IMG/VR virus record: IMGVR_UViG_3300037501_000255
Length of the DNA: 64,000 nucleotides
Reading direction: 5' to 3' (one strand)
Source of the DNA: a virus
Lineage: Duplodnaviria > Caudoviricetes
The translations under genes were made by a program, and so were the position numbers. Below, one piece after another: positions 8,978-56,019 of the stretch (the first letter of the stretch is position 1; each line of letters begins with the position of its first letter). The notes under the pieces are model-generated. The model was not told where the DNA came from and made no database searches. It was given only the letters and a program-made list of their open reading frames with translations.

Positions 8978-8987
8978 TAATTAATTA
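8978..8987. promoter_or_regulatory. Palindromic TAATTAATTA intergenic motif (1 of 7 copies)
   Basis: Exact copies start at 8978, 28294, 31276, 42395, 51346, 51628 and 55863, almost all at gene boundaries. Confidence 0.5.
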
Positions 8988-8993
8988 CTTATT

Positions 8994-9063
8994 TGGCAGG
9001 GGGGCTCGAACCCCCATCAACTATTTTGGAGACAGCCATTTTAGCTATTAAACTACACCACTA
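8994..9063 (-). tRNA. tRNA-Trp(CCA), 3' acceptor strand shortened
   Basis: GCTGT-CT CCA AA-ATAGT anticodon arm. The T arm is followed directly by TGCCA; the missing bases lie beside a C/G run, so assembly collapse is possible. Confidence 0.65.
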
Positions 9064-9078
9064 TCTTGAAGAATGATT

Positions 9079-9205
9079 TAGTGGGCCCGGTGGGACTCGA
9101 ACCCACACCGCTTTTATTCCAAAAAATGATAACGATTCTCTGTCGTACCCAAAGGGTCAGGTGGTGAGAACCACTAGTTTTGTGCTACCGTTACAACACG
9201 GGCCC
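9079..9205 (-). ncRNA. tRNA scaffold carrying a permuted Y-RNA-like helix instead of an anticodon arm
   Basis: GGGCCCG/CGGGCCC acceptor stem, D arm and T arm GTGGGTTCGAGTCCCAC; centre GGTTCTC-ACCA-CCTGACCC-TTT-GGGTACGA-CA-GAGAATCG-TTATC; 3' end ACTA. Confidence 0.65.
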
Positions 9206-9233
9206 GTGTATCAATATTAAACCATACTTCTTG

Positions 9234-9917
9234 ATGTCTAAAGTCAAGCTCCTCAGCCTAATTCTCGGCTGCCTCTTTCTCCTATTTGCTGGATGTAGAT
9301 CCAACCTAACTCACGAAGAGTTGCTTGCCTCGCGCATTGCCGAAGCAAGGCCGGCGATTGTTCATCTACTTGCGGAAGGTAGTAGTTGCTCCGCGTTTCA
9401 TGTTGGACACGAGCTTTTTATTACCGCAAGTCACTGTATCCGTCCCGATACGGAGTACATTATCGTAGATTCTGAGGATAATCCGTATGGGGTTCGCCCG
9501 ATACTTATTGATAGGGACCGGGATGTGACAGTGTTTGAGAGTAACGGATTTGAGGGCCAGCCCATGCAATTGTGGAATGAGCAGCTATACGGCTCTCCAA
9601 AGATAGGCTCTACGATAGTCAGTATGGGATTTCCAGGATATTATCTGCAAAACTTTGTTTTCGAAGAGGGTACCGTTCTAGACAAGAGAACTGATAATGG
9701 GGTGCGCCTTATCGTTAGTCGCGGAGTAAGTTATCCCGGAGAATCTGGTGGCCCAGTCATTTCATTGCAGAATGGTCAGGTGGTGGGGTTAGTACATGCA
9801 TTAGCGGAGCGTATTACCCACATAAATGACGATGTTCAAGTTCACAACACTTTAAGTCTGTTAGTTGCTTGGTCTGAAATAAGGACAGTCTTAGAGCAAG
9901 CTCGTAAGGTTAGATAA
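9234..9917 (+). CDS. Trypsin-like (S1) serine protease, predicted lipoprotein
   Basis: LLFAGC lipobox, TASHC, DRDVT and GESGGP motifs; start trimmed to ATG 9234. Confidence 0.85.
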   Translation: MSKVKLLSLILGCLFLLFAGCRSNLTHEELLASRIAEARPAIVHLLAEGSSCSAFHVGHELFITASHCIRPDTEYIIVDSEDNPYGVRPILIDRDRDVTVFESNGFEGQPMQLWNEQLYGSPKIGSTIVSMGFPGYYLQNFVFEEGTVLDKRTDNGVRLIVSRGVSYPGESGGPVISLQNGQVVGLVHALAERITHINDDVQVHNTLSLLVAWSEIRTVLEQARKVR

Positions 9918-9932
9918 CTTTAGGAGTTAACA

Positions 9933-10601
9933 ATGCTAATACGTAATATTCTAGCAGCTTTCATGCTGCTTGTAGTCAGCTCTTGCGCTATTTTCCGGCC
10001 GGCGCCAGTACAGGCTACGGTACAAGAATCGCGGGGTGCGGTGACGCACATCCTCTATGGGCAGCGTTCCTGCACAGCATTTCATATTGGGGATGGAAGA
10101 TTCATAACTGCCGCACATTGTTTCGGAGAGGATCTTGGAGGACCCATGGATGAGGTCCGCATGGTCAATGAACGCAATTTTCAATACTTCCCGAAAGTAG
10201 CGAAATTTAATAAGGCAAAAGATCTGGTGCTTTTGCTGGCCCCTGACTTTAAAGGGCCAGCGCTGTCCTTGTGGGATGGTGGATGGGACGGTCACATTCC
10301 GCGCGGAATGGAGCTCGTGGCTCTAGGATATCCTGGGTACTATGGTCTAGATTTCATCTTCGAGCATGGATTTATCAAAGATATAGTTAACTTTGAAGGG
10401 GTCGAGATGGTTGTCTCTGAGGAGGCGTCTTACTCCGGCGAGTCTGGTGGCCCCGTACTTTCTACTGCAAATGGAAAGGTTATCGGTATGGTAGATGCTG
10501 GTATAGAGCTTATTAATTGGCGTCGCTTTCCAATGCATGAGCATGTAAGCATTTCACTATTTGTGAGTGCCATGGAAATACGTGCTTTTCTAGCAAAGTA
10601 A
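9933..10601 (+). CDS. Trypsin-like (S1) serine protease paralogue, predicted lipoprotein
   Basis: VVSSC lipobox, TAAHC, KDLVLL and GESGGP motifs; tandem paralogue of the upstream gene. Confidence 0.85.
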   Translation: MLIRNILAAFMLLVVSSCAIFRPAPVQATVQESRGAVTHILYGQRSCTAFHIGDGRFITAAHCFGEDLGGPMDEVRMVNERNFQYFPKVAKFNKAKDLVLLLAPDFKGPALSLWDGGWDGHIPRGMELVALGYPGYYGLDFIFEHGFIKDIVNFEGVEMVVSEEASYSGESGGPVLSTANGKVIGMVDAGIELINWRRFPMHEHVSISLFVSAMEIRAFLAK

Positions 10602-10623
10602 ACTGCATCATCTACGCGGACGT

Positions 10624-10650
10624 GAGCGCCGGGATTTCTCGGCGCTTTTC
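10624..10650 (+). terminator. Intrinsic terminator after the protease pair
   Basis: GAGCGCC...GGCGCT hairpin followed by TTTT. Confidence 0.55.
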
Positions 10651-10798
10651 GTTTGCTCGGAAGCGGCACGCAGCTTTTCTTTAAGACTATCCAGTGCCCA
10701 CTTGACAGCGACAACACCATCATGACCTATATCGTAGGCTGATTGCTCTAGGCGCACTTCCTCTATCAGTTCTTCGATTTGTTTTATTTTCATATAAG

Positions 10799-10875
10799 TG
10801 GTTGGGGCGGCAGGACTCGAACCTGCAATAACTGGAATCAAAATCCAGGGTCCTAGCCAATTAGACGACGCCCCA
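10799..10875 (-). tRNA. tRNA-Gln(UUG)
   Basis: TGGGGCG...CTGGA-TT TTG AT-TCCAG...CGCCCCA A CCA. Confidence 0.95.
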
Positions 10876-10879
10876 GCGA

Positions 10880-11205
10880 AGTTTCCCCGCTATGATTGAG
10901 TCGATGCGCGGGGTGTGCATCTGCCATCCGATCAAATGGCGTTGCTTAAAATGATCGCCCGACGCTAATTTAAGAATAGGCGGTAGCGCAACCATACGCT
11001 ACTTTGCCTCCGAGTTTATAAGGCTCGGTGTCGGCAGTTATTTAGTGACCACCTGATGGCTTAATGGATCCATCACCCAAGTGGTGGTGCCTAACGGGCA
11101 CCAGTCGGTCTTTAGGCGACGGCCTTCCAGTAGCCTAAGCTTCACAGTATCTGGCAATACTTTTCTGCTGCGCACCGTCCGAGGTTTGAGATCTTAGGTG
11201 CCGTG
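10880..11205 (-). ncRNA. Unassigned ~325-nt multi-hairpin RNA
   Basis: No credible ORF and about eight consecutive hairpins, e.g. GTAGCG/CGCTAC, CCGAG/CTCGG, TGATGG/CCATCA, GGTGCC/GGCACC, GCCAT/ATGGC. Strand inferred from the flanking tRNAs. Confidence 0.5.
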
Positions 11206-11208
11206 AGA

Positions 11209-11304
11209 TGGTGGGAGGGGTTGGATTTGAACCAACTTTAACCAGATAACCTTCTTCTATCGGACAATTCAGTCTAGTAGTTGAAGACGGATTTGTCACT
11301 TCCC
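11209..11304 (-). ncRNA. Minihelix (acceptor stem, T arm, CCA) carrying a permuted Y-RNA-like helix
   Basis: GGGAAGT...CCGTCTTC-AACTA-CTAGAC-TGAATT-GTCCGA-TA-GAAGAAGG-TTATC...GTTGG TTCAAAT CCAAC-CCCTCCC-A-CCA; no D arm. Confidence 0.7.
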
Positions 11305-11307
11305 AAG

Positions 11308-11436
11308 TGGTGGAGGGGGCTGGACTCGAACCAGCGACACAGGGCATTTCATGCGATAACCGATTTCTGTCGGAACAGGAGTTCAAAAAGTTGAAATCGA
11401 ATTTGTTCCCTGCTCTACCAACTAAGCTACTCCTCC
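11308..11436 (-). ncRNA. tRNA scaffold (Phe-like) with a permuted Y-RNA-like helix in the anticodon region
   Basis: GGAGGAG/CCCCTCC-A-CCA with canonical D and T arms; centre TCGATTTC...TTTGAAC-TCCT-GTTCCGA-CA-GAAATCGG-TTATC. Confidence 0.75.
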
Positions 11437-11443
11437 AAAAAAA

Positions 11444-11728
11444 TCACTCCAGAGTCATGCAGCTAGTCGGAGGGCTATCGCAAGAAGCGGTGGCCAAATC
11501 AACTTCGCATGTCTTAATTTCCTTGACTGAAGACTTGATATCGTGATCGCATACTCGCTCCGACGCGAGTACTTCAAGACACTCCTCTACAGGCTGACCT
11601 GTGCACTCCGACGCCTTGCTACAATATGCTGCCATCATGGTACGACATGCACCTTGTTTTTCTTCTTGCGATTCCTTGCAGGCAGAAATCGAGAGGAGTA
11701 CAAATACATAAAGCAGGATCTTTTTCAT
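11444..11728 (-). CDS. Cys-rich lipoprotein
   Basis: LSISAC lipobox and eight further Cys in 94 aa. Confidence 0.7.
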   Translation of the reverse strand: MKKILLYVFVLLSISACKESQEEKQGACRTMMAAYCSKASECTGQPVEECLEVLASERVCDHDIKSSVKEIKTCEVDLATASCDSPPTSCMTLE

Positions 11729-11746
11729 TTTCTATTTCCTTTGTTA

Positions 11747-11869
11747 TGGCGGCGACATCCCGAATCGAACGGGAAACGCGCGTTTAACAGACGAGAATAA
11801 TCTTCAATCGGACCTCGGGTCGAGTGGCGAAGATCACTTTTTCGTGTGATACCATTTCACCATATCGCC
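11747..11869 (-). ncRNA. tRNA scaffold with a permuted Y-RNA-like helix
   Basis: GGCGATA/TGTCGCC-G-CCA, D arm GTGAAATGGTATCAC and a T arm; centre GATCTTC-GCCA-CTCGACC-CGA-GGTCCGA-TT-GAAGATT-ATTC. Confidence 0.75.
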
Positions 11870-11950
11870 ACATGAGGGTGCTTTTTGGTTTTCAGAAGTT
11901 TCCCCCTACGCCTCAGGCAGCTGATAGTTTTCTAACCGCCACCTCAAAAT

Positions 11951-12083
11951 ACTTCCTAGCAGGACTCGAACCCGCACAGATCATATCGATAATTCATACC
12001 ATCGGACAGAGTCAATAACCGGTATGGTCGGCTGGTCACCAGATTTCTCTGGTCGTACTTACCAATTAGTACGATATAGGAAG
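11951..12083 (-). ncRNA. tRNA scaffold with an extra hairpin and a permuted Y-RNA-like helix
   Basis: CTTCCTA/TAGGAAG acceptor stem, D-like GTACTAATTGGTAAGTAC, hairpin CCAGA-GAAA-TCTGG, then CCATACC...TTGAC-TCT-GTCCGA-TGGTATGAA-TTATC and a T arm; no encoded CCA. Confidence 0.65.
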
Positions 12084-12085
12084 GT

Positions 12086-12164
12086 TGGTCAGAGTGGTGG
12101 GATTCGAACCCACACGGTATCCAGTTCCCAAAACTGGCGGCCTACCTCGTGGCCCTCACTCTGA
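12086..12164 (-). tRNA. tRNA-Pro(UGG)
   Basis: CAGAGTG...CCAGT-TT TGG GA-ACTGG...CACTCTG A CCA. Confidence 0.9.
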
Positions 12165-12702
12165 TAAACTCGTACACTCTTTCTTCTATGAGATTCCTAT
12201 ATCTCGAATGCCAGTATTGGTGATGTGTTGGGCATAGCGGCACCAAATTATCTGGATTATTGTTGTCCCTATCCTCATCCATATGGTGGACTTCTACGAT
12301 TAGGCTCTCTTCGCAGACGGCACACTTCTTTTTATTATTAGCGAAACACACTGTCCTGTAATTCTTAGGAGATCTGACTTCCGGCCCCTTCCTAAAGAAT
12401 TTATTTGCACATGCATAGGAGCATGTAGCTTTGCTCTTAGCGGGAGACGCTGGAGTAACAAATTCTTTATTGCAAACGGGGCAATTCTTATTAAGACGTT
12501 CGCATTTATACCTTGGCTTACCGAAATGAGTCGTTGAGAACCCTGTACACATCTGCTTTGCTTTTCTTATACCAGAACCGTTATTCGGAAAACCTAATCC
12601 GGTAGCCACATCAGAAAAAGAATTTGATCTTTTAATCAGATCAACCAAGAAAACGTCCGGCATGCGCCATTTATAGGCTTGGCGCATGCTATTGGACGAC
12701 AA
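12142..12702 (-). CDS. Free-standing HNH (homing-type) endonuclease with Zn fingers
   Basis: CPVC..CSYAC, CAVC and EVHHMDEDRDNNNPDNLVPLCPTHH motifs. Confidence 0.8.
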   Translation of the reverse strand: MSSNSMRQAYKWRMPDVFLVDLIKRSNSFSDVATGLGFPNNGSGIRKAKQMCTGFSTTHFGKPRYKCERLNKNCPVCNKEFVTPASPAKSKATCSYACANKFFRKGPEVRSPKNYRTVCFANNKKKCAVCEESLIVEVHHMDEDRDNNNPDNLVPLCPTHHQYWHSRYRNLIEERVYEFIRVRATR

Positions 12703-13499
12703 TTTATTTATTCACATGTCGTACGTCTCAAGCACATCGACGATAGTAGGACGAGACGTATCAACCTCGACCGGGCCATTTACTTCGATGCGATCCCACT
12801 CATCATCATCAATGCCGTCCTCGCCAAAGTAACGAGCTACAAATTCAGGCTCATCATCGATATGCATAACAAACGTGTGGTCTGCACTCTGATACACAAC
12901 CAAGGTCATCATATCTATACCCAGCTTTCCTTTAAAAAGTTTATTGTTCTGTGTTGACGGTCAAATGCCTTTTGGCGACGAAACTCCCTTACACGTACTC
13001 TGAACAGGAGATATGCTAAAATGCCCTCAGACAAAGATAGGGTAAAGTCCGGTGCATCACTCAGGTATAGTCTGAACATATGTCCGCCATACCTGTTGGG
13101 CACATACTGCGGCGCGTACGCAATGCTTTTACGGCCTGTATCAAACTCGCGCACCAGGGAATAGGTGTCATCATGGTCAACAACCCTCCACATACTTGGC
13201 TCGCGCATGCTTCACACTAGCCGTCGAATGTATGGTGTTTCGTCGAGCTTGATTATGTTACTCATAGACATTGCTGAGCAGGATGTTTGTGGTATTTGCG
13301 CTTCAGCCGGTAGCCTGGTCACTGGGCGAGTCCTCCGGCACGGTGACGACAAGCGCCGCAAACTAACTCATAAATTCGGCCCATGATTGAAATGCGGCAT
13401 CTTTTGCTCTGCCATCCTGTTGGTATTGGACAAAGATCGCGCCATTGCCCAGCTGACGCGCGTTAATATTCGCTACGCTCATGGAACCTCCTGTAAAAT

Positions 13500-13574
13500 T
13501 GGTGACCCGTGAGGGAATCGAACCCTCGTTACAGGAATGAAAATCCTGCGTCCTTGCCGCTAGACGAACGGGCC
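13500..13574 (-). tRNA. tRNA-Glu(UUC)
   Basis: GGCCCGT...CAGGA-TT TTC AT-TCCTG...ACGGGTC A CCA. Confidence 0.95.
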
Positions 13575-13650
13575 GTACCAGCGTAACGTGCTGGAGTCGC
13601 TGCATCTGGTTGTACTGCACAGTGACCGGCTTGTCCTAGCAGGAGGATGC

Positions 13651-13726
13651 TGGTGGGTCAGGTGGGAATCGAACCCACGACTTCCGGATTAAAAGTCCGT
13701 TACTCTTCCGGCTGAGTTACTGACCC
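13651..13726 (-). tRNA. tRNA-Lys(UUU)
   Basis: GGGTCAG...CGGA-CT TTT AA-TCCG...CTGACCC A CCA. Confidence 0.95.
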
Positions 13727-13790
13727 GGCGTGGCAATTCGAACTGCCGACCTTCACGTTCGTAGCGTAACGCTCACTGAGCTAATGGGGC
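13727..13790 (-). pseudogene. Degenerate tRNA-Arg(ACG)
   Basis: TTACG-CT ACG AA-CGTGA anticodon arm and T loop present; D loop collapsed to AGT; acceptor strands do not pair. Confidence 0.55.
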
Positions 13791-13864
13791 TCGGTGACGC
13801 CGAGTGTGTGGGCTTATGCCCGCCGAGCGGGCCCCTAGACAATTAATTTTTTATCTGCTACAAT

Positions 13865-14530
13865 CTACAGCATTTGATCATTATCTTTGTGGGAATGTCT
13901 GAGAAGAAGACTTACGCCAAAGATTAGGATTGCGATTGGAAGCATCCCGTGCAACTTGGCGGTTGCAATAATTACCAGCGCGGCGCTTAATATGACGGAT
14001 GTGTTAAGAGCCATTTTCGTCGCCCGAGCATGACCGAATTTCAGTTGCAATGCGGCCCTAAGAATACGACCTCCGTCCATTGGAAATATGGGCAACATAT
14101 TGAAAATTACTATGGCAATATTTGTCACTCCTAGAGTAGTCAGTATTGTAACTCCCGAAATGAGCATCCTGCCTGACGCCACGCTGGCAACGGCGGCATC
14201 CAGAAGGAGTGCAGCAGCGGCAATTGCCGCACTTAGCGCCGGACCCGCAAATGCAATTATGACCTCCTGCTTTGGAGTAACTCCAGTTAAATCTAATGAT
14301 GCAGCTCCGCCAAAGTAGTGCAGTACAATCTTCGTAGATGGTAATCCGTACTTGCGGGCAGCAAGTACATGCGCATATTCGTGAGCTAGTATCGAAGCAA
14401 AGAGCATGATTGCCAATACGACTCCTGCTGCGCCCAAAGAGAATATCATTCCGCCAACAGCGAGGAGTATGCTCCAATGTAGGAAGACTGGCACACCCAA
14501 AGCAGAGCCTAATTTAAGAGACGATCTCAT
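13865..14530 (-). CDS. Site-2 protease (peptidase M50)
   Basis: LGVPVFLHWS, HEYAH, FAGP and NMLPIFPMDGGR motifs; own ATG at 14530. Confidence 0.85.
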   Translation of the reverse strand: MRSSLKLGSALGVPVFLHWSILLAVGGMIFSLGAAGVVLAIMLFASILAHEYAHVLAARKYGLPSTKIVLHYFGGAASLDLTGVTPKQEVIIAFAGPALSAAIAAAALLLDAAVASVASGRMLISGVTILTTLGVTNIAIVIFNMLPIFPMDGGRILRAALQLKFGHARATKMALNTSVILSAALVIIATAKLHGMLPIAILIFGVSLLLRHSHKDNDQML

Positions 14531-15010
14531 TCCCCCCCCCCATCGCGCAACCTCGTGAATAAATCTCTTTCTACCCGACATAAAAGTCCACCGTAAAACG
14601 GCACCATACCTACTATGACGGGAGTGCTGCACCCACCTTTGATCTATCTCGGGTATTGTAGCTAAGGTATCTAAATAGAATCCCCATCTGGCCTCCGGTA
14701 TTAATGCTCCGAAATACACGTGGTATGAGTTGCCGCTGCTATAGATGCAGTATGGTGCCCCCGCAGAATTCATATTTGCAATAGAGGAGCAGATGGTCCT
14801 AACTCGCTCTAGGCTTGGCCGGCCGATAAAATCTATCATTGGCAGATGCACTCTTCTACGCGAATCACTTAACAGCAGACCGGAGGCTATGCCAATCTCG
14901 TATCCCGGTCTTATGTTGAAACTGGCGAGCAGCGCGCCAAACTGAGATTCGTCCACCAACTTTCCTAGATCAATATCGACCAAGCTCTGGGTATTATTTG
15001 TAACGTACAC
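14527..15010 (-). CDS. Primase-polymerase (AEP)-like protein
   Basis: YSSGNSYHVY and IDQRWVQHS motifs. The ORF track fuses it to the M50 gene across a long G run, probably as an artefact. Confidence 0.45.
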
Positions 15011-15168
15011 GCCTGGATCAACTGCCGGATAATCGACGGGGAATAATGTGCATAGAGTTAATTTCCACTGCGACGCACATTCCCTAATAATTTTAGCTAC
15101 AAATCTGTAGGGGTGGTTGCTGCAAAGCGCTCATATTCCGAAGGCTGCGGGCGCATAAAATTCATGGT

Positions 15169-15840
15169 TCACCTCGCCTGTGACACTTGCTGCTCTTTAA
15201 CCTCTACCTTGGATGAGCTCTCCATATGTTTTTTGATTTTCGTCGCAGCAAAAGCCGCGGCGGCACCGAGAACTGCTGCCATCAGTACCCACGAACCTCT
15301 TTCCTCGACGCGAACTTCCTTGTCCAATTCTTCCAGGTTATACCCATATAAGTCTCCTGTCGTACGATCGCAGAGCGGCAGAATATTCGCTTCTGCACAA
15401 TTGATAAGGTGCTCTTCGTCGTTGAACGATAGGAAGTATTTATTCACATCAACATGATTGTGTACGCCGTGCAGATCAATGCCATTAGCATAAGCGAATG
15501 CCTCTACACGCAAGAAGTACTCTTTATACTTTTCAAAAGTCGATGGCTCTACCATTACTCCAAAGACGTACCACTCTCTATTACCATAGCATGTGAACGC
15601 TGGTCCCGATGTACGGTGCAGCTTACCTCTCCACATCCAGTGCTGTCTATTGTGCGCTTCGAGAAGGCAGGGGCGATCTGCTGTGGAATGTAGGAGGTGT
15701 ACCGTCTTATGCACCGGGTGAGTATACGTGTATGCTTCGATGCTCTCGTCGTACTCAATTTGAGTATCAGCAATCTCCTCGGGGAGGATAGCTATCTTGT
15801 ACTCGCCTCTATCATTAATATAGGATACAGTTGATTCCAT
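15169..15840 (-). CDS. Hypothetical protein with LHRxxGPA-type repeats and a C-terminal TM helix
   Basis: LHSTADRP and LHRTSGPA...REWY repeats typical of large-phage hypothetical proteins. Confidence 0.55.
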   Translation of the reverse strand: MESTVSYINDRGEYKIAILPEEIADTQIEYDESIEAYTYTHPVHKTVHLLHSTADRPCLLEAHNRQHWMWRGKLHRTSGPAFTCYGNREWYVFGVMVEPSTFEKYKEYFLRVEAFAYANGIDLHGVHNHVDVNKYFLSFNDEEHLINCAEANILPLCDRTTGDLYGYNLEELDKEVRVEERGSWVLMAAVLGAAAAFAATKIKKHMESSSKVEVKEQQVSQAR

Positions 15841-15864
15841 AAATTCCTTTCTTGAGGTACTAGA

Positions 15865-16221
15865 ATGATTTCTAAATTGGCGACCCTGGCCAACGAACTG
15901 GGTGCAGCCGGGCTATACACGGAGGCTGATTTGATCGATGAATTGCTTGTCAAAGAGGCTGTTGAGGTTAAGTCGCGCAACCGACCAAGTCCGGCTCTTG
16001 ACAGCACCCATCCCAAAGTTAAAGACAAGAAAGATCACTTTCCTCTAGGGAATATCTCTCAGGCGAGAAATGCTCTCGCCAGAGTTAATCAATTTGATTA
16101 GAAACCTGAGTGGTGGGATGGAACGCTGCAGGAGTTGGTGAACACAGTTGTTAAGGCCGTAAGAAAGCGTTACCCGTCTATTGAAATTAGTAAGGCTTCT
16201 AGAAAGCCTGGCAAGGACTAG
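15865..16221 (+). CDS. Hypothetical protein with an internal in-frame TAG (16099-16101)
   Basis: The frame continues plausibly after the TAG (NQFD*KPEWWDGTLQELVNTVVKAVRKRYPSIEISK) to a TAG at 16221, just before the next ATG; N-terminal LANELG..G motif. Confidence 0.55.
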
Positions 16222-16222
16222 T

Positions 16223-16568
16223 ATGCTACGCGCCCTAATTAGACTTGCAAATGACTTGGATGAAAGAGCTCGGTTCAGTGCGGCAGATGCCGTAGACCGG
16301 TCATCAAAGCATTTGTGGAAGATATATCCCCACCATTTAGCATTGAAGAAGCCGCTATAATAGCTGATGCTATAGGCATAGATTTTACAGAATCGGACTT
16401 CACTCTTAAGGATTTTCAAAAGGGTTTGGGTGTTGAGCTTGAGCACGGCGCGCGCGACCCAGAAACAGATGTGGTACACAAGAACTATCTTAGCGTAGGG
16501 CGTATAGCTTGGGCACATCTAAAAGAAGCCCTAAATACTATAGCAAGTTAGCCAAGATAGAATCCTAA
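16223..16568 (+). CDS. DUF5661-like protein, two apparent homopolymer frameshifts
   Basis: GLGVELEHG...IAWAHLKE motif. One extra G near 16298 and one extra C near 16530 would give a continuous MLRALIRLANDLD...YYSKLAKIES. Confidence 0.6.
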
Positions 16569-16571
16569 TTT

Positions 16572-16823
16572 CTAGGTGTCAGAACTGGGGCCTTTAAGGC
16601 TATCCTCGCTCTCCAGAGGTTCGGCTTTCTGGGCCTCAAGTTCTTTGCGTATGTAACGCATAAATAACATTGCGCGATCTTCCGGTAGGAAGGTAGCATC
16701 GCCGCAATCCTCTACTGGCACAGGGAAGATGAACCCCGATTCTGTGGCGTAGTATAGATTACCTTTACGGTAATATTTGAAATGTACCTTCTTATCACCT
16801 GACACCATATCTTTGATATTCAT
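16572..16823 (-). CDS. Small conserved phage protein
   Basis: FKYYRKGNLYY...FPVPVEDCGDATF...MRYIRK pattern recalled from jumbo phages. Confidence 0.6.
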   Translation of the reverse strand: MNIKDMVSGDKKVHFKYYRKGNLYYATESGFIFPVPVEDCGDATFLPEDRAMLFMRYIRKELEAQKAEPLESEDSLKGPSSDT

Positions 16824-17069
16824 TTAATGTAACTCCTTGCCACATTCAGCTGCCTACGCGCCTTCTCGGAATAGACGGCCTCCGACAGTAGTCACTCCAG
16901 TGAGAGCGGGGCTCTCGCTAAATCTTGGGCTGTAAACCATACAATTCCATGCCTTGAATAGTATTCACGGAGAATTGGGGGCGGCAGAGGGCGACGCAAG
17001 AATTTTCTCCACCACGACCGTTCCTTGCTCTCCTCGACAGGCACTAGCCAATCGCTTTCTCCATTTGAT

Positions 17070-18038
17070 TTAATCGATACAATTCTGATTTTCATAAGAA
17101 ATCCCTACGCGCGCAAGATTCGGAAGAACACCAAGGTTTTTACCTTTAAACTCCATTTCGACATCTACCAAACCAGAGTTCAGTATCTCTAGTTGAAAGT
17201 CTGGTATGTAGTGTAAATCATATGAATGCTGCCTGCGTTGCGTGAATGATCCGTTTACATTCATAGGATCAGTGTTAGAAAGGTGCTGAATGGGGGTAAT
17301 GTTGGTGGGCCATGTCAGCATTGATTCCTCGGCAGCTTCCTTGCCGCCCATCCCTTGGGGCCTAAAGGTATGGTGATGGCTGTCAAAGACAATTGGCACT
17401 TTAGTCTTTTGCGAAATTGGCAACAACTCTCTGACTGAATATGATGATTCATCGTTTTCAAGTGTTAGTCGAGATCTGGCAGACTCATTTAGACGATTGA
17501 TAGACTCAACCAGCCTATCGGCTCTATTTGATTTCCCGCCATGTATATTTATAGGAAATTGAACCGAACGGTCGAGTCCCATAGCATCAAACAGCCAACC
17601 TTGATTGTTGAGCTCGGCAATTGAATTCTCGATAACCTCATCTCTATCAGAGGATAGGACTGTGAATTGCCCGGGGTGAGTTGATATGCGGAACCGTAGC
17701 TGCGATATTTTATGTCCCAAATTCGCAAGGTGCGCTCTAACATTATCATTGTCCCATAAGCTACGTTCAACCTTATCCATGAGAGGAATGAGGTTGCTGC
17801 TAATCCTAAAATGTCGCACACTGGTTGTTTCGTATATCAGATCAAGTATCTTACTTACTTCGTTTATGTTATTGACGTAAGTGTCTACTATATGCTCTGA
17901 CGAGTAGGCTCCAGATAGATACTGGCCGAGTTGGAGTGTCCTCTCACCAACTATGTTTTCCATTGTAGATACAGCTGTGCCGTTTCGTTTAAGCACAGTG
18001 CGGGGGGCGAGCCACTGACAACAGATCCCTATTCCCAT
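17070..18038 (-). CDS. uvsE: UV damage endonuclease
   Basis: RISSNLIP, STHPGQFTVLSS, NIHGG, LTLENDE, PIVFDSHHH and EFKGKN motifs. Confidence 0.9.
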   Translation of the reverse strand: MGIGICCQWLAPRTVLKRNGTAVSTMENIVGERTLQLGQYLSGAYSSEHIVDTYVNNINEVSKILDLIYETTSVRHFRISSNLIPLMDKVERSLWDNDNVRAHLANLGHKISQLRFRISTHPGQFTVLSSDRDEVIENSIAELNNQGWLFDAMGLDRSVQFPINIHGGKSNRADRLVESINRLNESARSRLTLENDESSYSVRELLPISQKTKVPIVFDSHHHTFRPQGMGGKEAAEESMLTWPTNITPIQHLSNTDPMNVNGSFTQRRQHSYDLHYIPDFQLEILNSGLVDVEMEFKGKNLGVLPNLARVGISYENQNCID

Positions 18039-18800
18039 CTACTCTCCGTCCATAATGAAGTCTGATGCATCCTCTAACTCTTCTGTGTCCGCTGCGATGG
18101 TGATATCTTCTTTGGTTATATGCTCTGTTGGGGCATCACCTGCAACCCATACAAGGGGATAGCCGGGGATGGTACCATAAGCATACTCTTTTTGAAAGTC
18201 TCGCAGACTAGAGAATTTTTTGAGTTTTCGATCTTTTATCAATTCGCATGGTGCATTATACTCTTCAACTATAATGCGATCATTATCTACATATACAACA
18301 TGTACCCAAAATGCATAGAACTCGGTAAACCTGTCCCCCGCTCGTGGAGCGGCCATCCTCTCTTCTGTTATCTTGTTCCAATTGTAGTTAGCCATGAATG
18401 AATCCCTCGATAAGTTCCTGAGAGTATCCCAGAATTCTTCCCATCTCTTTGTGGTATAGCTCATCTCGATTTGAACTATTTAGAAGCTGCTCTATGATGT
18501 CTGCGTCAGACGCGTGTCCATCTGCCCACATGACAATATTGCGTGCGGTAGAGGGGGTGGCCCCATTCACAATAAAGCTTCTGAACCCTATTGGACGACT
18601 GCCTGGTGAGGCATTTAGTTCCCTGACATACTGAGCGAGATTAAGCCAAGCTGCCTCACTCCTTATGTCGAAGGCGCTAAACAGCGCAACATTACGAATG
18701 CCCTTGGCGATTGAGTAGGCTTGTGCGGAAAATTCACCGACCAACATACCAAGAAAGAATGGGTCTTCACCTGAGTCGGCAATAAGTTTCGTTGGGTCTA

Positions 18801-19232
18801 TCACTCTTGTGCTCCCTTATAGTGAAGATCGCAGACCGTGCTCAGCCACCCGTTGGAATTTCTAGTGGAACCTGGGGCACCGCACTCTTCGCAAACAGTG
18901 CGGCTACGCTCTTCAAAATGATTTATGATTTCATCGATAGTTGGATTTTGTCCGGTCACATATAGCCTGAGCGCCCCGAATTTCTCCTTGATCTGAAGGA
19001 TATTTCCACTCCATCCGGCTTGACGCAACTGTTCGAAACACTCGCTCAGCAGGCCCTTCCAACCTGGACCAACGGAGCCTTGACGAAAAGAGTGATAGGA
19101 TGGATCGATCTGGGCCACCCATTCCTGAAATTCGATGCTGTAATTACGTTCATCGGTCGACATATAGCTGGCTCCTTCGAAGACCGCGCTCAGTGAAATC
19201 CTGTACGGGCGCGAATGCCGGAGAGTCGTCAA
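18801..19232 (-). CDS. Conserved phage hypothetical protein with a Zn ribbon
   Basis: GPGW, QIKEKFGALRLYV and CEECGAPG motifs. Confidence 0.65.
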   Translation of the reverse strand: MTTLRHSRPYRISLSAVFEGASYMSTDERNYSIEFQEWVAQIDPSYHSFRQGSVGPGWKGLLSECFEQLRQAGWSGNILQIKEKFGALRLYVTGQNPTIDEIINHFEERSRTVCEECGAPGSTRNSNGWLSTVCDLHYKGAQE

Positions 19233-19828
19233 GCTTTATGGCAAATGGGATCAGCAGATCTGGAAGAGAGTCGTAGTTTACCGTATGCTCGGCATACATC
19301 CATTCGCCATATAATGTGAAGCCGGCTTCCAGCGCACGAGAGAGCTCTCTAAAAAGAACCCTGTTATCGTACAGCCAATTCCATATTGGCCGGAACTGCA
19401 ATTAGCTGTAGTTTCTCGCTTTACATATCCCTTAAGAAGGATGTGCTCACGATTTCCTACGATAATATCGCCGATGCCATCCCACTTAATGCGAACATTC
19501 GCACCATCAATCTTTTCTTCTACCAGAATATTTCGTGACGATAGGAATTTCCACCTGGAATGTTCGGGAAGGACTATATCATCCTTTGCTATCGCTCCTG
19601 ACCCCCGGCAGATGTGGTGTCTTCGGGTATCTTTGTAGATTCTTTCGCTGCATATTCGCTACTCTTTATGTAATGTAGTATGTGAGCCTGGGCAGCATCT
19701 TTAATGCAGGAAAAACACAGGCCAGTGTCGTGAAACTCTGGCCTTGAATATCTCGCACTACATTTGATACAATTAACCTCAGTATCTGCCAAAGGCATTT
19801 CCCAAACGTCTATATCTTTAATACTCAC
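19150..19828 (-). CDS. ATP-dependent RNA ligase (Rnl2-like family), frameshifted in the assembly
   Basis: Across frames: YPKTPHLPGS, VEEKIDGANV (KxDG), LYGEWMYAEHTVNYDSLP. Breaks occur at G runs or short runs. Confidence 0.75.
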
Positions 19829-20018
19829 TCTGAGTCTCCACTATCTGAGCATAGATCCGACTCCACAGAGCGCTCTTCTGTGCCAGCATCAACAAGTGAT
19901 GTATTGGTGTCTGGGGAGCCCCTGAGTAGGGCCAGTACTCCGGCGATGAGGCATGCGACTAATAAAAGTGCCCCGACTACCTTAAAACTTCCAAGAACTT
20001 CTTTCATCATATATAACC

Positions 20019-47845: not shown

Positions 47846-50800
47846 CTGATGCCGAAGATTATCATCTCTAAATTCAGAAGCGATACTCTCAGCGAGGTAC
47901 TACAAAACTCCGAAAACTCATAAATATACCCTTATTGTTTGCCACTTTTATCTAGCACACACAGCGCCTCTCTTTTGCGAGAGGTAGCTATCCGCCACAG
48001 CAGCGCATCTTTAGAGCACGCTCTCTTACGGCACAGATGCCAATAGGTTACATAAAAGAGCTGTTACATTATCCCGTTCTCCGTGGTTGTCAGCATTCAG
48101 CAACTCGAACATGTCATCGGCACGGCGCGGCATAATTTACCGGTCTTCTTTATTATTAAAGATAGACTTCATTAATAATATCAAATTCAGCTTGATAGTA
48201 TCCGAAAGATGCCTTAAGATCTTTGAGGAATTCATGACTCATCTTGACACGATCTTCCTCAGCACGCTGCTTGACCATTAATGCGTGCGCTACTTTGACA
48301 TCATGCAATTCCCTCGCCAAAGGGAGGCGCCTTATCATGTACGCCTGCCTCAGTACCAATGCTAATATGCCATTCTTCGGAGTAGGTTCGGAATATTGCC
48401 CACCCCCCAATGCGGATCACATGTCCCGCGCAGAGCTCCTGCGTAATAAATTATTTGTTTGTATCTTCTGATTCATCGGTTTGACGAAAATCATCATGCT
48501 GGCTAAGCATATACTTGATGGCAGAGATCACGTACTGCGTTGCTATCTCTGAGGTAAACTCTTCCGCATGCATTGTGGATTTGATTAGTTGCACAGCCTC
48601 ATCATCAAGCACCCGCACGCGTTTAGCGCATTACGTGGGCCCCAATCCGATTCATCTTGAGCTGGTGAGCCAACTCGATATCTGCAGTAGTCATGCGTTC
48701 CTTATTGCACAAAACTTGCTGTGTGATAGTAGTAAATTCCCGAGAGATTTCAAAGCCCTAACTGTGCCACGCAAGATACGGGAGGGCTTCTTATAGCATC
48801 AATCGTGCCGCCGCAGATACTTCTTCAGAGGAGGTATCACTGGGCGTTCGTCAGTGGAGCGGTCACGAGCGGCCTCCAACTGCATAAGGCGGGTAATCTC
48901 TTCCCGATGTTGCTCGTTGGGTTTAAATAGCGCAGCCATTTCTTTGATGGTATAGAAAAGACGGTGTGGTTTATCGCCAAATCTATATGCGTCGTTAAGT
49001 AGATGTCCTACCCATTTACGGAGTGTTTCGTCGTCCACAGCGGTTCCTTATCAGGCAATAGCCTTTTTAATCCTACCATTCTAGAATAGCCCAATATATC
49101 TTTGGGCTCAACCACCTGTGTTGTAAGGTACTCCGGCGAGTCAGTAGGACTCGGTATGCCGTAATACCGGTATATGCTCGGCCATTTGAAGTACAACACT
49201 ACCGTTTCACGCGTAACTGTATAGTGATTCTCTGCAAGACTAAACCACAGCCACGGTCTACCTTTCCAAATAAATTGCGGAATCAAATCGCGCGTTATGA
49301 TGTTCGGCAGGTTTTTTGACCTGAGTAAGGCGAGCGGCTATTCGTTGGTGCCTGGCAATCTCAATATCAGCCAGGTATCTAAAGAAGGGGCGCACTGTTA
49401 CTCCTGTCTTACAGAATTCCGGCAGTTTCTTATTGCACAAAAGTCCTAGAAAACTGGGGGAATTTTTTTCGGTAGGGTCGGATGTTGCACAAGGGTTGAA
49501 AAATTGAGCGGCAAATCGGGGTCCCTATAGCACTTTTAACCCCCTTTGGACGCTCAAATATTTTTTCAAAGACCCTGTTTTCTCACTTTTCGATCGACCC
49601 TTCCGGAAAAATCGCAACCTCTTCTGGAAAATTTTCGACCTCTTCGTGTTTTTCAGCAACCCCCTCCTCAGAAATTGGGGCGGCTTCCCCTTCCTGTTCG
49701 GCTTGTTCGCCCATTTCCAGTAGAGCATCAGGGTAGTATGGAAGTGTTCGGGTAGGCGTGGTCTCTCTAGCTGACCGTGTGACCCGGGGATACTTTCGGA
49801 ATGCAAATGCTGCTGTAACAAGTGTGCCTAGTGCAGCGGTCATGAGTAGTAGTTTTCTAATCATTCGGTTTTCCAGAATGGTTTACATGGTGTGGTTAGC
49901 TGGTCTTCGGGACTTGGCATTTGCTTTGTGGAGCGGCCAAGTGGGTCTATGACATAGCAGTAGGCATTCTTTCGGTGGTCGTAATTGGTGGCGACGATAT
50001 AACCTCGGGTGCCAGAGACATGTATGATTTCCTGGTCTTTTTATAGGCCGGTGGTTCGGGTAGGATGTGTGTGATTTCGAGTGGGGCAACTTGCAGATCG
50101 TGTGAGGGAGGGGGTCATCTACATTGCGCACATTGTAATAGCCGGTGTCTCGGCTATACTCAAGCACTCGATACACTCCTTCGCCGATGTAGCTTTGTAA
50201 GGTTACGAAGTCTTCGGGATTGGGGTACATATTTTCACCAGTTTCTCGTAGTGGGTGTCGGCAACCCAACCGGGTTTGTAATTCTCCCATAGCACAAAAA
50301 CTCGTTCTCAGAGGCGGGGAGGGTAGGAGTTGTCTATGTATTCTTCGTAAATTTCTGCAATGACACCTACTAGACACTCGTGTTCGCGGTTGGGGACATC
50401 AGCGCTATGGAACCAAGCTACTCGATCTCCGATTCGGAAGGGGTTTTTGTGGTGCAGCATTTGATTAACTCCAATTCATGAAACCAGTAGGGCCCATCGG
50501 GAATTTGGTTTCCTAAATAATCAAATAAATCAAGATAATAGGTCCAACCTGATGGTCCGCGCCACCCTTCGCCAGCTACATTAGCTGTATCGTCATCGCG
50601 CCACATTGGGTAGCTATAGACTATCCCGTAAGCAGCAGTTGTAAACAGCCAGTCCATACTGGTGTCGTAGAATTCTGTGGCGGTAATATATACCTTATCA
50701 CCCCGCTTCAGCGTAGGCCGTTGTGTTATTTCTGGCAGCATTCTATAAGCTCCAGTTCGTGGTAGTGGGCTTAATCGAAGAATTAGTTATTATCAATAAT

Positions 50801-52379
50801 TTCAAGATGATACCATCACTGTTACAACCAGACACTTCAGCGATTCCCTCATCGTCTTCGTATCCAGCCACCGAGTCTCATGCATTGCTCTGGCCCGATA
50901 ACCGGTTGCAGTTAGCATGGAGGGTTCAGTAAATTCGTTTTTAATTATATATACCCAGTTACCACGCTTGAAGCGGGGTGACTCACTCATTTGCTGGCCC
51001 ATCGATAGCTACCATCATTACCTGGTCATTACAAGGAACAAGGACAAAATTAGTTGCCCCAGCTATAGTTGCCGCAAAGTGACAAAGGTCAGTCCTAGTA
51101 TCATGAAAGTAGAAGCTTGCCTTAAAGCTCTCAGCCTCGTAGTAGTGGGCAGGGCGGGAGGTAGGCGAGGGTGGCCGTGGAGTGATCCCGCAGCCGATCA
51201 GCAGGGCCAGCATAGCCACCACGCCAACCATCATCAACACGCCCGTAAAGGTAGCAAAGAGAACTCGCTCAATATTAATGCTCATAGACACTCCTGGGTT
51301 CTCGGGCAGATTCGCTCCGAGTATGTAGCGGTGTACCTAGTGAGGTAATTAATTATTGGTCCTGTCTGTACGGCAAGGTATGTCCCGCGCACGCATACGC
51401 GCGATCGCGCACGATCAGTAGGTGTGAACGGATGTTCATAATGTAAGTTATTTATTAACTGCCAGATAGGGTATACACTGAGGGCAGTAGAGATCAGGTA
51501 GGAGGGCCGGAGTTCATGGAGTATATTCCCCCGGCGGCCCCGTGATCTTATAGATCGCTTTTTTCCCAAAAATATTTGAAACCGTGGACTCTAAACTATT
51601 ATTGCTACCAGCAGGAGTTAATGTTAGTAATTAATTAACCGAAAAAGTTTCGACACTACCCCCTTTTGCAAAACCATATGCCTATTACGAGGCATGCGTG
51701 GGCCCTAAGACGGCCTGTAATTTTTGCTAATGGGGTCAGCAAAGATCGGGTGAGAGGACCCTCATGCTCCCGCGTTTATTTGCGTGCTTTTTGACGCTCT
51801 CGCTTCTGGTTATTCTTAAGCGGAGGATGGCAGAGCCCGCAGTCTTGGTGGCCGGCGATGTTAGGGCGGCGAGTGCGTTTATATCCAGGCTTTTTCATGT
51901 GGACACACCTTGGCGGATAGCGAGGGCCTCATCTTGCGTGAGGCTCCTGGGTTGCGGCTCCACGATAGGCTCCTCAGGAGCCATATCAGCACGGGCATGG
52001 GCTTTGCCGCACTCAGGGTGGAAGCGAACGGTGTTAATCATACCGTCCTCCACATACCGCTGCTCGCGATATTTCTCACCCTTTTTGATATGGGCCCAGC
52101 ACCACATGCACTGCCAGATTGAAGATGTCCCAGGGCGGTGTGCGACGCGAGTGATATCAGCAAGTACAGTCATCTATTTATCCGCTGTTCCAATTTCTCT
52201 AGGAAAACCGTGTACCCAGGGAGGTGTTCACGGATAATGTCCTCAGCCTCGTCAAGCAGGAGCTCGACCTCGGTAAGTTCGGCTTTAAGACGATTGACGT
52301 AGTGAGAGCCTTTGGATTCTCCGGGATTTTAATGGGGTGTGCGCAGGGCCCATCATGTCCTTCCGCGCGCGTGTGGCTC

Positions 52380-53190
52380 AGACCGGATCGATCAGGCCGA
52401 CCAGGGTGCGCACGCCGAAGCCGACGCCGCCCTTGGCGATGTAGCCCCACTCCTTGTCGGTGTCCGCCGGACCCGCGGCCAACGAGAAACGGCTGCGCAC
52501 CGTCGGCCGTCCAGGTGCCACCTCCGCTCATGCCACCCAGATCGGGCACCGCTTCGACCTCGCCGGTACGCGGATCGATGGCCTCTGGCCCTAGCGTGAT
52601 GGGCAGGGCTGCGGGCCGTTGGTCGTCGACAGCCGCAGGGTCGTAAACACTCTCCGCGACGAGTCCGAGGTGACGGCGCATCCCGGGGAGCAGGTCGCTC
52701 CGCTGCGCCGCCGGGACCCCGCTGAGCAAGAACGGGAGTGGAACCTCCGGCAACTCCCGCGCGACGAAGACCGCCAAGGCGTCCGCGTCGACCGCCCGCC
52801 CCGACAGCGGCACGCTACCCATGGCAGTCGACTCGACCTCAGCGCGATCTATCTCGATCCGCGACGGCGCGCCCGCGGATCGCGCCGGCGTGAAGGCGCA
52901 GGACAAGATCGTGAAGATCGGCGAGGAGTCCACGGTCAACATGGGCCTCGACGAGGCCGTCGAGCGCCTGCGCGGCAAGCCCGGCACGCCCGTGGTGATC
53001 TGGATTCTGCGCAAGGGCTGGGAGGAGCCGCAGCGCTTCGAGATCGTGCGCGACATCATCAAGATCGACTCGGTGACGAGCCAGCTCCTCGCGATCGCGC
53101 CCGCGGTCCAGGGCAAGGACGCCAAGCCCGCGAAGGACGCCCGCGATCCCAAGGAGGCGCCGCGCGTCGGCTACGTGAATCTTCCGCTTT
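52380..53190. other. GC-rich bacterial-like DNA island with a carboxy-terminal protease (S41, PDZ region) fragment on the + strand and an unrelated gene fragment on the - strand
   Basis: Abrupt GC increase. 52850-53190 encodes RAGVKAQDKIVKIGEESTVNMGLDEAVERLRGKPGTPV...IVRDIIKIDSV...VGYV. Both fragments are partial. Confidence 0.75.
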
Positions 53191-53412
53191 GAGTTTGCGG
53201 CGGGCCCATCTGCGGAGCGCCGGCCTTCTCTTGTGGTGATAGCGATTGCAGCAGTCGCAGTGCATTCCGCCAGGACCACGCTTTCCATGCATGATTTTTG
53301 CCATCGGATCAGCCTGTGTCCTCCAAAAGAAAACCAGCGGGGTTGGCTACCCGCATCTCCCGGATACAATCCGGGGCTTTAATTAAGCTATGGTTAAGGG
53401 ATTGGTCTAAAA

Positions 53413-53736
53413 GGCGTCGGTGGGGCATTTGTTTTCAACCATAGAAAGATAACCCGCTAACTGTCGGACCAAAAGAGAGTCGGGTCAAAAGAGCGGCTAT
53501 GGGGATTGTCTGGTAAATATAGATAACCCATGTGCCTGCAGACCCAGAAAAGGTGCGATACGGTAGTTGCGGCGGCATCACAACCCCGTAATTTTTACGA
53601 TACATCTGTCTGGTATTCAACTTTCCGGCGTGTAGTGCGGCGCCTGGAACTTTACTCGTCAGAACAGATTATCCTTGCCCTTACCTCGCTACCGTATCGC
53701 AGGGGTAGTATGGGACGAGGTGGGTGGTTGGACGCC
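53413..53736 (-). ncRNA. ~325-nt structured RNA containing a permuted Y-RNA-like helix
   Basis: Terminal GGCGTC/GACGCC stem; perfect 13-bp long-range stem 53554-53566/53689-53701; TTGACC (53488-53483), GGTCCGA (53470-53464), TTATC (53452-53448). Confidence 0.6.
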
Positions 53737-53779
53737 AACTATTTAACTTGTTCAGCGTCAGCGACGGGGACCACGCCCG

Positions 53780-54094
53780 TCACGCGTAGTTGGTCTCCAT
53801 ATTCGGCGGGCTGTAAAGCCACTGGTGGTAGGTCAACTCCACCCTGCGTCCCGTGCGCATGGCCTCCTGTACCTGTGCCACTGCCTCAGGTTCGACCGTA
53901 AAGGTGAATTTCTCAGCCTGCACAGCCGACATACCAGCAGGAAGAGCCATCAACAACTCCCCCTCCCAGGACTTGAGGATCACACCTTTTTCTGAGAGCT
54001 TGGTGACCACACCCACACGGGTGCCAGTCGAGTAATTGGGAAAGCAGGCTGAGAGACCCGCCGCAAACAAAACTGCCAACATCATACGCTTCAT
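53780..54094 (-). CDS. Small OB-fold-like lipoprotein
   Basis: LSAC lipobox; GTRVGVVTKLSEKG...SWEGEL motif common in phage lipoproteins. Confidence 0.65.
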   Translation of the reverse strand: MKRMMLAVLFAAGLSACFPNYSTGTRVGVVTKLSEKGVILKSWEGELLMALPAGMSAVQAEKFTFTVEPEAVAQVQEAMRTGRRVELTYHQWLYSPPNMETNYA

Positions 54095-55794: not shown

Positions 55795-56019
55795 ATTATA
55801 CTCTACTTTTTTGTTTATAGGTCTTTGCCCTACACCAATATCTTGCTTTGTACTAGTGGCGGTAATTAATTACCACCCTTGCTCGACGATGCGCATGGTA
55901 TCCATATTGAGTGGAAGGTCAGGCAACTTTTGATTTGATTCCGAGCATCCTGTAGCTTGAGTTGCCATTTTGGTTTCTTCCTAATATCTCCCTTGTGAGT
56001 GCGGAAACTCCACTGAAGA

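Follow-up and report, generated by a model that had tools for sequence, protein, structure and literature searches.

A conserved non-coding element of a Caudoviricetes genome that joins a novel 5' domain to tandem canonical Y-type hairpins and to a 3' module shaped like tRNA-Thr

What kind of RNA might a phage encode in an intergenic region that lies far from its other small RNAs and yet carries the signature of a Ro60-binding Y RNA? This question is raised by a 64,000-nucleotide (nt) stretch of viral DNA (IMG/VR virus record IMGVR_UViG_3300037501_000255; Duplodnaviria; Caudoviricetes), here called the window. It holds a transfer RNA (tRNA) island and a transfer-messenger RNA, both on the minus strand, and, about 40 kilobases (kb) from the island, a region poor in open reading frames (ORFs). 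An earlier note had described that region as one structured RNA of ~325 nt (53413-53736) carrying a permuted Ro60-binding helix. On the minus strand (53325..53745, ~420 nt) we find an element that is non-coding, composed of several domains, conserved and covarying, with a novel 5' domain, two canonical Y-type hairpins in tandem and a tRNA-Thr-shaped module at its 3' end. The note was right about a structured RNA far from the tRNA island, with Y-type helices on a larger scaffold that has no Rfam family, but the size that it gave was too small, the true extent reaching from 53745 to ~53325, and the 3' cloverleaf had been missed.

Since the folding score of the single sequence was uninformative, relatives were sought on the contigs that carry the 38 homologues of the upstream gene, and blastn, as the note had advised, aligned syntenic loci to the element. 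In all, seven distinct metagenomic loci were found to have a homologous element directly behind the same small gene: L002, L003, L004, L010 and L006, at blastn identities of 68–75%, and L008 and L016, which were recognized through conserved blocks and not by blastn. With the window these make up a family of eight loci; the elements of L002 and L006 are cut by contig ends. Contigs from three more public runs span the element at ~86–90% identity. The borders of the element were set by where similarity to metagenome contigs stops, the homology breaking off sharply at 53745 in two independent contigs and at 53315 in one. As the note had supposed, the region is not a conserved protein-coding frame: the longest stop-free frames among the homologues span 45–82 codons in differing frames and on differing strands, and a coding function was ruled out by the lack of any reading frame common to them. 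Three observations point to the minus strand: G-U pairs in the long-range stem P2 (described below), which fit that strand alone, the orientation of the Y motifs and the strand of the flanking genes. The element as a whole is thus given as follows.

53325..53745, minus strand: whole conserved non-coding element (blastn identity of 68–75%, alignment, contig borders, no conserved ORF)

We next considered how the Y-type sequences of the element (53545-53403) are arranged. They form two modules separated by a short linker.

53482..53545, minus strand: Y module A, canonical (lower helix by RNAalifold; RF01656 in relatives)
53472..53481, minus strand: pyrimidine-rich linker between the modules (length kept at ~11 nt, sequence not kept)
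53403..53471, minus strand: Y module B, canonical (fifth-pair covariation, RF01656, profile R2)

Module A reads GGGUC-U-G, upper stem, GGG-UUAUC loop, CCCAU and UUGACCC, while module B reads U-GGUCCGA (53471-53464), GGG-UUAUC (53452-53448) and UU-A-GACC-A (53410-53403). The strands of the bulged helix in the window are thereby GGGUCUG and UUGACCC in module A, and UGGUCCGA and UUAGACCA in module B. A bulged helix of the form 5'-GGUCCGA...UUGACC-3', made from the two ends of a module, was indeed found, with the motif exact in relatives and the outermost pair covarying. For module A, RNAalifold gave a lower helix of five pairs, the outermost being G-C in four sequences and U-A in two, and the helix was recovered in the full-length alignment too; its bulged base at 53540 is U in the window and C in all relatives, including contigs X3 and X4. 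Two tandem hairpins are present in the window, L003, L004 and L010, and a single canonical one (5'-UGGUCCG, upper stem, AUUAUC, UUGACCA-3') in L008 and L016, where it is followed by a gene start or a plain terminator.

The earlier note had read GCCGCT..TTGACC..GGTCCGA-CAGTTAGCGGG-TTATC as one hairpin, inside a larger scaffold closed by GGCGTC (53413-53418) and GACGCC (53731-53736). All these strings exist, the first at 53497-53448 on the minus strand, but that one spans the junction of two hairpins, and what had looked like a permuted helix consists of the closing (3') strand of the first Y hairpin, a linker of 11 nt and the opening (5') strand of the second. Instead of one ninth Ro60-type module, the locus thus holds two canonical 5'-GGUCCG...UUGACC-3' modules, a ninth and a tenth. 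The closing helix proved to be a chance match with no conserved partner. We regard it as very improbable that the region folds around one circularly permuted Ro60 helix (UUGACC-loop-GGUCCGA) in a ~325-nt scaffold closed by GGCGUC/GACGCC, even though the window sequence does offer a perfect canonical bulged helix in that form, a nested fold that is 2.5–3.5 kcal/mol more stable than the tandem one, and three letters (U at 53540, C at 53456 and A at 53408) that weaken the tandem and would strengthen the nested fold. Against it stands the comparison with relatives. Under tandem pairing the fifth pair of each lower helix is Watson-Crick in all 10 cases, compared with none of eight under the nested alternative, and its covariation, with G-C against U-A in module A and U-A (window, L004) against A-U (L003, L010) in module B, fits the tandem only. 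The unconstrained minimum-energy fold is the tandem one in three relatives (L003, L004 and L010), by 3.7–4.7 kcal/mol, and the upper stem GCCGCU/AGCGG of the nested fold is not kept, its energy of –8.5 kcal/mol in the window falling to –5.3, –2.8 and –1.5 kcal/mol in relatives, no better than non-cognate pairs. The GGCGUC/GACGCC helix, moreover, has no partner in L003 and L010 and is impossible in the single-hairpin loci L008 and L016, in which the region is missing altogether.

The Y-family models of Rfam also align in canonical orientation. RF00019 and RF01656 align over their full length at five places with 13.6–33.5 bits, among them window positions 53399-53473 on the minus strand (RF01656, full model length, 13.6 bits) and the module B counterparts of L004 (RF01656, 33.5 bits) and L010 (RF00019, 23.3 bits); RF01656 likewise matches the counterpart of module A in L003 and L010. 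A profile of ten Y modules (R2), built on sequence only as the stems are out of register, retrieved two Y modules of the tRNA island, 8656-8717 with E 1.8e-4 and 8814-8857 with E 0.0019, and for that reason we take the modules described here and the free Y hairpins of the island to be one family. Of the eight occurrences of the pattern TCCGA-N5-14-TTAT[CT] in the window, all on the minus strand, seven are in the tRNA island and one is here, which argues that the Y-type signature is real and not due to chance.

Module B differs between loci. In L003 (3477-3554) and L010 (1049-1124) it has an extra inner hairpin (GCCC..GGGC or GCUC..GAGC) and closely resembles the tRNA-island module at 8814-8857, while module B of the window resembles the single module of L008. 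Since these likenesses differ between loci, the second module seems, as judged by its sequence, to have been swapped or gained on more than one occasion.

The ~200-nt conserved domain that precedes the Y modules (53745-53550) had no Rfam match in any homologue. Covariance model R1, made from this 5' core, did not find it elsewhere in the window, in the element-lacking loci or among the genome-contig candidates, and the domain is undescribed and new. Its parts are the following.

53727..53745, minus strand: conserved 5' block UAAAUAGUU-GGCGUC-CAAC (invariant alignment columns)
53689..53701, minus strand: 5' arm of the 13-bp (base pair) long-range stem P2, UGCGAUACGGUAG (covariation)
53604..53669, minus strand: long hairpin P3 inside P2 (minimum-energy fold in all eight homologues)
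53571..53592, minus strand: hairpin P4 (AUUA..UGAU) with the invariant block GGGUUGUGAUGCCGC (invariant columns, helix list)
53554..53566, minus strand: 3' arm of P2, CUACCGUAUCGCA, followed by CC and a U-rich linker at 53546-53553 (covariation)

The perfect 13-bp long-range stem that the note had pointed out is present, as the inverted repeat 53554-53566 / 53689-53701. It is one of three non-palindromic perfect inverted repeats of at least 13 nt with arms at most 300 nt apart in the 64-kb window, where by our own arithmetic ~0.3 would be expected. The stem also covaries: both sides have changed in 7 of its 12 modelled pairs, 97.9% of the cells are paired, none of 500 shuffles did as well and slid controls were paired to only 25–55%. 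Another of the three repeats, with perfect 13-nt arms at 50698-50710 and 50969-50981, has 258 nt between its arms.

Formal pair counts cover P2, the lower helix of module A and the cloverleaf. For P3 and module B, RNAalifold gave no pairs from plain MAFFT alignments, because bulges and insertions shift the stems out of register, and per-sequence folds and a duplex test of cognate against non-cognate arms were used instead. P3 was the minimum-energy fold in all eight homologues, despite stems with almost no sequence in common. In its outer stem, cognate arms paired at –8.2 compared with –3.5 kcal/mol for non-cognate arms, the cognate ranking first among eight in 6/8 loci, and in its apical stem at –8.3 compared with –4.0 kcal/mol, ranking first in 5/8. 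The expectation that stems would be kept in homologues was in this way borne out for both P2 and P3. P3 has an invariant internal loop, GAnGAGUAA (53660-53652) opposite UUGAAUnCC (53620-53612), whose closing pairs covary and which by its sequence is like an AGUA/GAA loop-E (sarcin-ricin) motif.

Less can be said of the remaining helices. P5, an extension of P2, has GCC-GCC of the GGGUUGUGAUGCCGC block paired with GGU (53685-53683) and GGC (53679-53677), and a GGU/GCC hairpin of 3 bp was predicted by RNAalifold. The registers of P4 and P5, taken from inspection, are weakly supported, with one compensatory case in L016 (AGC/GCU) and otherwise invariant sequence. The domain also includes the invariant block GGGUUGUGAUGCC, and inspection of folds showed a possible weak and variable 5' hairpin, P1, within 53727..53745, which is weak in the window. 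A recurring phage promoter was considered for TAAATAGTT and rejected, as the sequence is not enriched elsewhere in the window (12 matches compared with 11.9 expected).

Some known RNA classes were considered for the 5' domain and set aside. A hammerhead ribozyme needs invariant C3 and U4 together with a three-way junction; in the CUGAnGAGUAA...UUGAAU loop positions 3-4 vary (CU, UU, CC, AC), and P3 has a two-strand internal loop. A T-box needs a specifier codon, and then a purine, after the GAA of the S-turn; here the triplet following GAA is UNC with variable N, then C, and there was no Rfam match. A 5S-like RNA and a retron or intron remnant were rejected for lack of Rfam support.

Downstream of P2, all eight homologues read A-C-C/U and then the U-rich linker. 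The junction in L008, ACCA-UUUU-UGGUCCG, has the form of tRNA-ACCA-UUUC-GGUCCGA at 8717 in the tRNA island, and P2 from its G-C pair onwards may resemble the acceptor end A-C-C of a tRNA, with the length of a 12-bp acceptor/T-stem stack. The island Y hairpins at 8717-8660, 8857-8800 and 2234-2168 (minus strand) begin 4–9 nt past an encoded tRNA ACCA, a spacing which suggests that their 5' ends arise through the 3'-end processing of tRNAs.

The same junctions bear on the possibility that the locus is a small RNA operon, cut into a ~200-nt 5' domain RNA, two Y RNAs of ~65 nt and a tRNA-like piece, in which the function of the 5' domain would be unrelated to Ro60 and the tRNA-like elements would be only 'punctuation' for RNase P and 3'-end enzymes. 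We consider this account the less probable one, albeit a serious contender. It draws on the island hairpins that start shortly after tRNA 3' ends, on the like form of the junction after P2 (ACC(U/A), U-rich run, GGUC), on the single Y module of L016 that ends in a plain terminator, and on Mycobacterium smegmatis, where YrlA and YrlB share a precursor and RNase P cuts YrlA (PMC4201824). Against it speaks that a Y module follows the 5' domain after 6–15 nt in eight of eight loci and that R1 never found the domain alone; the domain is, furthermore, far more elaborate and conserved than a processing signal requires.

Beyond the Y modules, at 53395-53332, the element ends in a structure with the four arms of a tRNA.

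53332..53395, minus strand: tRNA-Thr-like cloverleaf (RNAalifold consensus, folds, relaxed ARAGORN)
53395-53391 with 53336-53332, minus strand: acceptor-like stem of 5 bp, followed by UA (covarying)
53388-53376, minus strand: D-like arm
53375-53359, minus strand: anticodon-like arm with a 7-nt loop, AUUGUAU (triplet UGU at 53368-53366)
53354-53337, minus strand: T-like arm with a non-canonical 8-nt loop, preceded by a 4-nt variable region
53325..53331, minus strand: U-rich tail after the cloverleaf (terminator scan, sequence, alignment)

A four-arm cloverleaf was the RNAalifold consensus in the four two-module loci, with a covarying 5-bp anticodon-like stem and a closing helix that covaries between AACCA/UGGUU and AAUCA/UGAUU. 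The features looked for in a tRNA, namely the four-arm form, an anticodon stem of 5 bp, a loop of 7 nt, U33 and, at position 37, a purine, were all found. Every copy has U33, while A37 is shared by the window, L003, L010 and X3 and absent from L004. The triplets in the loop read UGU, GGU, CGU and GGU, and contig X3 has UGU with a compensated stem; each of these is an anticodon for threonine. In the window, L003 and L010 the minimum-energy fold takes the cloverleaf form, whereas in L004 the three hairpins are kept but the closing helix of the minimum-energy fold differs; the z-scores run from –2.1 to –3.0. At relaxed thresholds of 85–90%, ARAGORN called tRNA-Thr in L003, L004 and L010. The cloverleaf is a tRNA mimic or a much-decayed tRNA.

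Several observations weigh against the composite structure described above. Single-sequence folding of the minus strand was no better than that of shuffles (z –0.71), and the small size of the family, eight loci and three fragments, limits the power of covariation for P4, P5 and the upper stems of the modules. All scores with the Y families were below the gathering threshold of 38 bits, the best being 33.5 for RF01656 and 25.4 and 23.3 for RF00019. The window copy is itself imperfect, as its module A has U for the bulged C and GC for GA, while its module B has UAGACC and two upper-stem mismatches, leaving the upper stem and the 3' strand weakened; the nested fold of the window, at –33.2 to –34.2 kcal/mol, is more stable than the tandem fold at –30.7 kcal/mol. 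For the cloverleaf, neither default ARAGORN nor the Rfam tRNA model (RF00005) made a call, relaxed ARAGORN missed the window copy, and the signature of D and T loops (GG, UUCRANY), a 7-bp acceptor stem and a CCA end are all lacking; the D-like loop of the window reads AAUUA and the 8-nt T-like loop UAGCCAAC. These non-canonical loops, the short stem and the absence of standard calls make recognition of the cloverleaf by RNase P uncertain. As to the three letters that favour nested pairing in the window, those at 53540 (C to U) and 53456 (U to C) are window-specific, with the ancestral letters kept in the closest relative, contig X3, while A at 53408 differs from L004 and no change at 53408 is among the differences listed for X3. 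The window copy may be drifting or fold-switching.

Searches for further copies of the element or its parts gave little beyond the family. Blastn with the window, L008 and L016 versions of the element gave no match among GenBank phages. Exact and degenerate pattern scans found nothing in viral contigs, or one coding chance match (L014), and in metagenome contigs only a contig already among the relatives; four pattern matches in genome contigs were rejected as chance with covariance model R1. Neither R1 nor R3, the model of the cloverleaf, found a further copy in the window or in the element-lacking loci. The comparison with Rfam that had been called for returned nothing at the locus at gathering thresholds: no family matches the scaffold, and the Y families match the modules below the gathering score. 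One Rfam match, to skipping-rope (18.6 compared with 36.7 bits), was judged to be chance, because it spans the cloverleaf and is unseen in the relatives.

The element is flanked on one side by a gene for a 104-amino acid (aa) lipoprotein-like protein (53780-54094, minus strand) and on the other by a small Cys-rich ORF beginning at 53304 (minus strand). The upstream protein, of ~104–120 aa, has by eye a signal-peptide or lipobox-like N-terminus and 38 metagenomic homologues, with the RNA element behind a subset only; a homologue search with a 102-aa neighbour protein found no related loci. Pfam and PHROGs held no family for the upstream ~104-aa protein and gave nothing useful for either neighbour, and no partner protein is conserved beside the RNA, the downstream ORF differing between relatives. 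The Cys-rich ORF of the window (53059-53304, minus strand) matches an intact 53-aa ORF of L004 (4806-4967) over ~41 residues and then diverges, its C-terminus being cut off by a GC-rich stretch at 52370-53190 (65–73% GC compared with ~50% around it).

This setting also lends something to the idea of a cis-acting part of an mRNA, either a 3' untranslated stabilizer or terminator of the upstream gene or a leader of the downstream ORF, with no function in trans. The stop codon of the upstream gene lies inside the conserved 5' block in most relatives, the T-like hairpin with its U-rich tail scores like an intrinsic terminator in a terminator scan, and the ribosome-binding site of the next ORF, GGAGG, follows at most ~10 nt past the cloverleaf. 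We nonetheless give this idea very little credence, for the upstream gene occurs without the element in the more distant L001, L009, L015 and L017-L020, the downstream gene is not the same from one relative to another, the modules are homologous to Y hairpins that stand free elsewhere in the genome, and some 420 nt of covarying multi-domain structure far exceed what a terminator needs.

With regards to known systems, the likeness to animal Y RNAs and nematode stem-bulge RNAs (RF00019, RF01656) lies in a hairpin of 60–78 nt with a bulged 5'-GGUCCG(A)/UUGACC-3' base, an upper stem and a loop that starts with (G/A)UUAUC. Human Y1 and Y4 read GGUCCGA-N9-10-GUUAUC. Unlike those RNAs, the modules here are phage-encoded, stand in tandem in an RNA of ~420 nt behind a 200-nt domain, and would lack free 5' ends unless processed. 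The tRNA-island Y modules (8656-8717, 8814-8857 and 2168-2234) share sequence family, strand and a junction to an acceptor-like ACC(A) end with the modules studied here, which differ in that two stand in tandem, after a unique 200-nt domain instead of a tRNA, and are followed by a cloverleaf.

[quoted passage not shown] In YrlA, a Ro60 site is coupled to a tRNA-like domain, which RNase P cleaves (Chen et al. 2014, PMC4201824). The element resembles YrlA (RF02553) in having a Ro60-type helix and tRNA mimicry in one transcript, with an expected interplay with tRNA-processing enzymes. In YrlA, however, the tRNA-like domain is nested in the Ro60-binding stem and has a canonical T arm, whereas here the cloverleaf is a separate 3' module, outside both Y stems, and its D and T loops are non-canonical. 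The YrlA motif GNCGAAN0-1G was absent from all eight homologues by a regular-expression search, and RF02553 gave no match in the window (E up to 10) or in relatives (E up to 5). With Yrn1 of Deinococcus radiodurans, part of the Rsr-Y RNA-PNPase machine (cited in PMC4201824), the element shares a modular logic, one module serving Ro60 and another tethering a second protein, but Yrn1 has no similarity in sequence or structure to the 5' domain.

tRNA-like structures are also familiar from other systems. In MALAT1/mascRNA a tRNA-like structure forms the 3' end of a eukaryotic long non-coding RNA, and the thrS operator, in a bacterial mRNA leader, mimics the anticodon arm of tRNA-Thr. The cloverleaf described here is like them in being a tRNA-shaped 3' element on a longer non-coding RNA, with a loop that keeps the threonine identity positions G35 and U36, but there is no homology to either.

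A TROVE protein has been noted in jumbo phages (PMC7824862), and a further paper discusses putative Y RNAs of phages that are highly transcribed and lie near an Rsr-like gene (PMC12282133). No TROVE domain was found in ORFs of at least 250 aa within window positions 1-20000. On the strength of their motifs, the Y hairpins would bind a phage Ro60.

We give about even weight to the proposal that the locus is a conserved non-coding RNA cassette in which a 5' domain is joined to tandem canonical Y hairpins that dock a phage Ro60 and to a tRNA-Thr-like cloverleaf that engages tRNA enzymes. The element would, as its sequence suggests, be transcribed as one unit from the minus strand, with or just behind the upstream small gene. 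Its Y hairpins would then dock the Ro60 ring of the phage itself, up to two per RNA. By analogy with YrlA, the flanking tRNA-like features may engage enzymes that handle tRNA, with RNase P acting on the cloverleaf and 3'-end enzymes on the ACC end. These would either set the ends of the RNA or be brought beside Ro60, as in YrlA and the Deinococcus Ro60-Y RNA-PNPase machine. The 5' domain could tether a second protein, as the other module of the Deinococcus Y RNA does. Whether the 420-nt RNA would stay whole or be cut into modules is a matter of guesswork, with our guess leaning slightly towards the former. A bolder version, which we hold to be unlikely, would see in the intact ~420-nt RNA a new class of 'super-Y RNA', carrying two Ro60 rings on one transcript together with a mimic of tRNA-Thr and a novel loop-E domain to bring in a nuclease or RNA-repair enzyme, and acting as a RYPER-like phage machine for surveillance or repair in infection.

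One further observation concerns the window at large. A 12-nt palindrome, GTAATTAATTAC, occurs twice in it, at 8977-8988 in the tRNA island and at 55862-55873, and could by its sequence serve in recombination or in the binding of a protein.

No description of a composite RNA of this arrangement was found in the literature, and the architecture is undescribed, although the combination of a Y RNA with tRNA mimicry is already a known kind. Y RNAs are thought to act in a modular way, as adaptors between the Ro60 ring and other enzymes, and to our knowledge their second modules and partners are largely unknown outside Deinococcus and Salmonella. The locus provides a compact natural test case, with two Ro60-type hairpins joined to a conserved novel domain and a tRNA-Thr mimic, in phages that have RNA-repair genes. 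[quoted passage not shown] If the RNA is cut up, these phages would produce Y RNAs outside tRNA arrays by means of tRNA-like 'punctuation'; if it stays whole, it would be the first Y RNA, as far as we found, with several Ro60 sites and two other functional modules.

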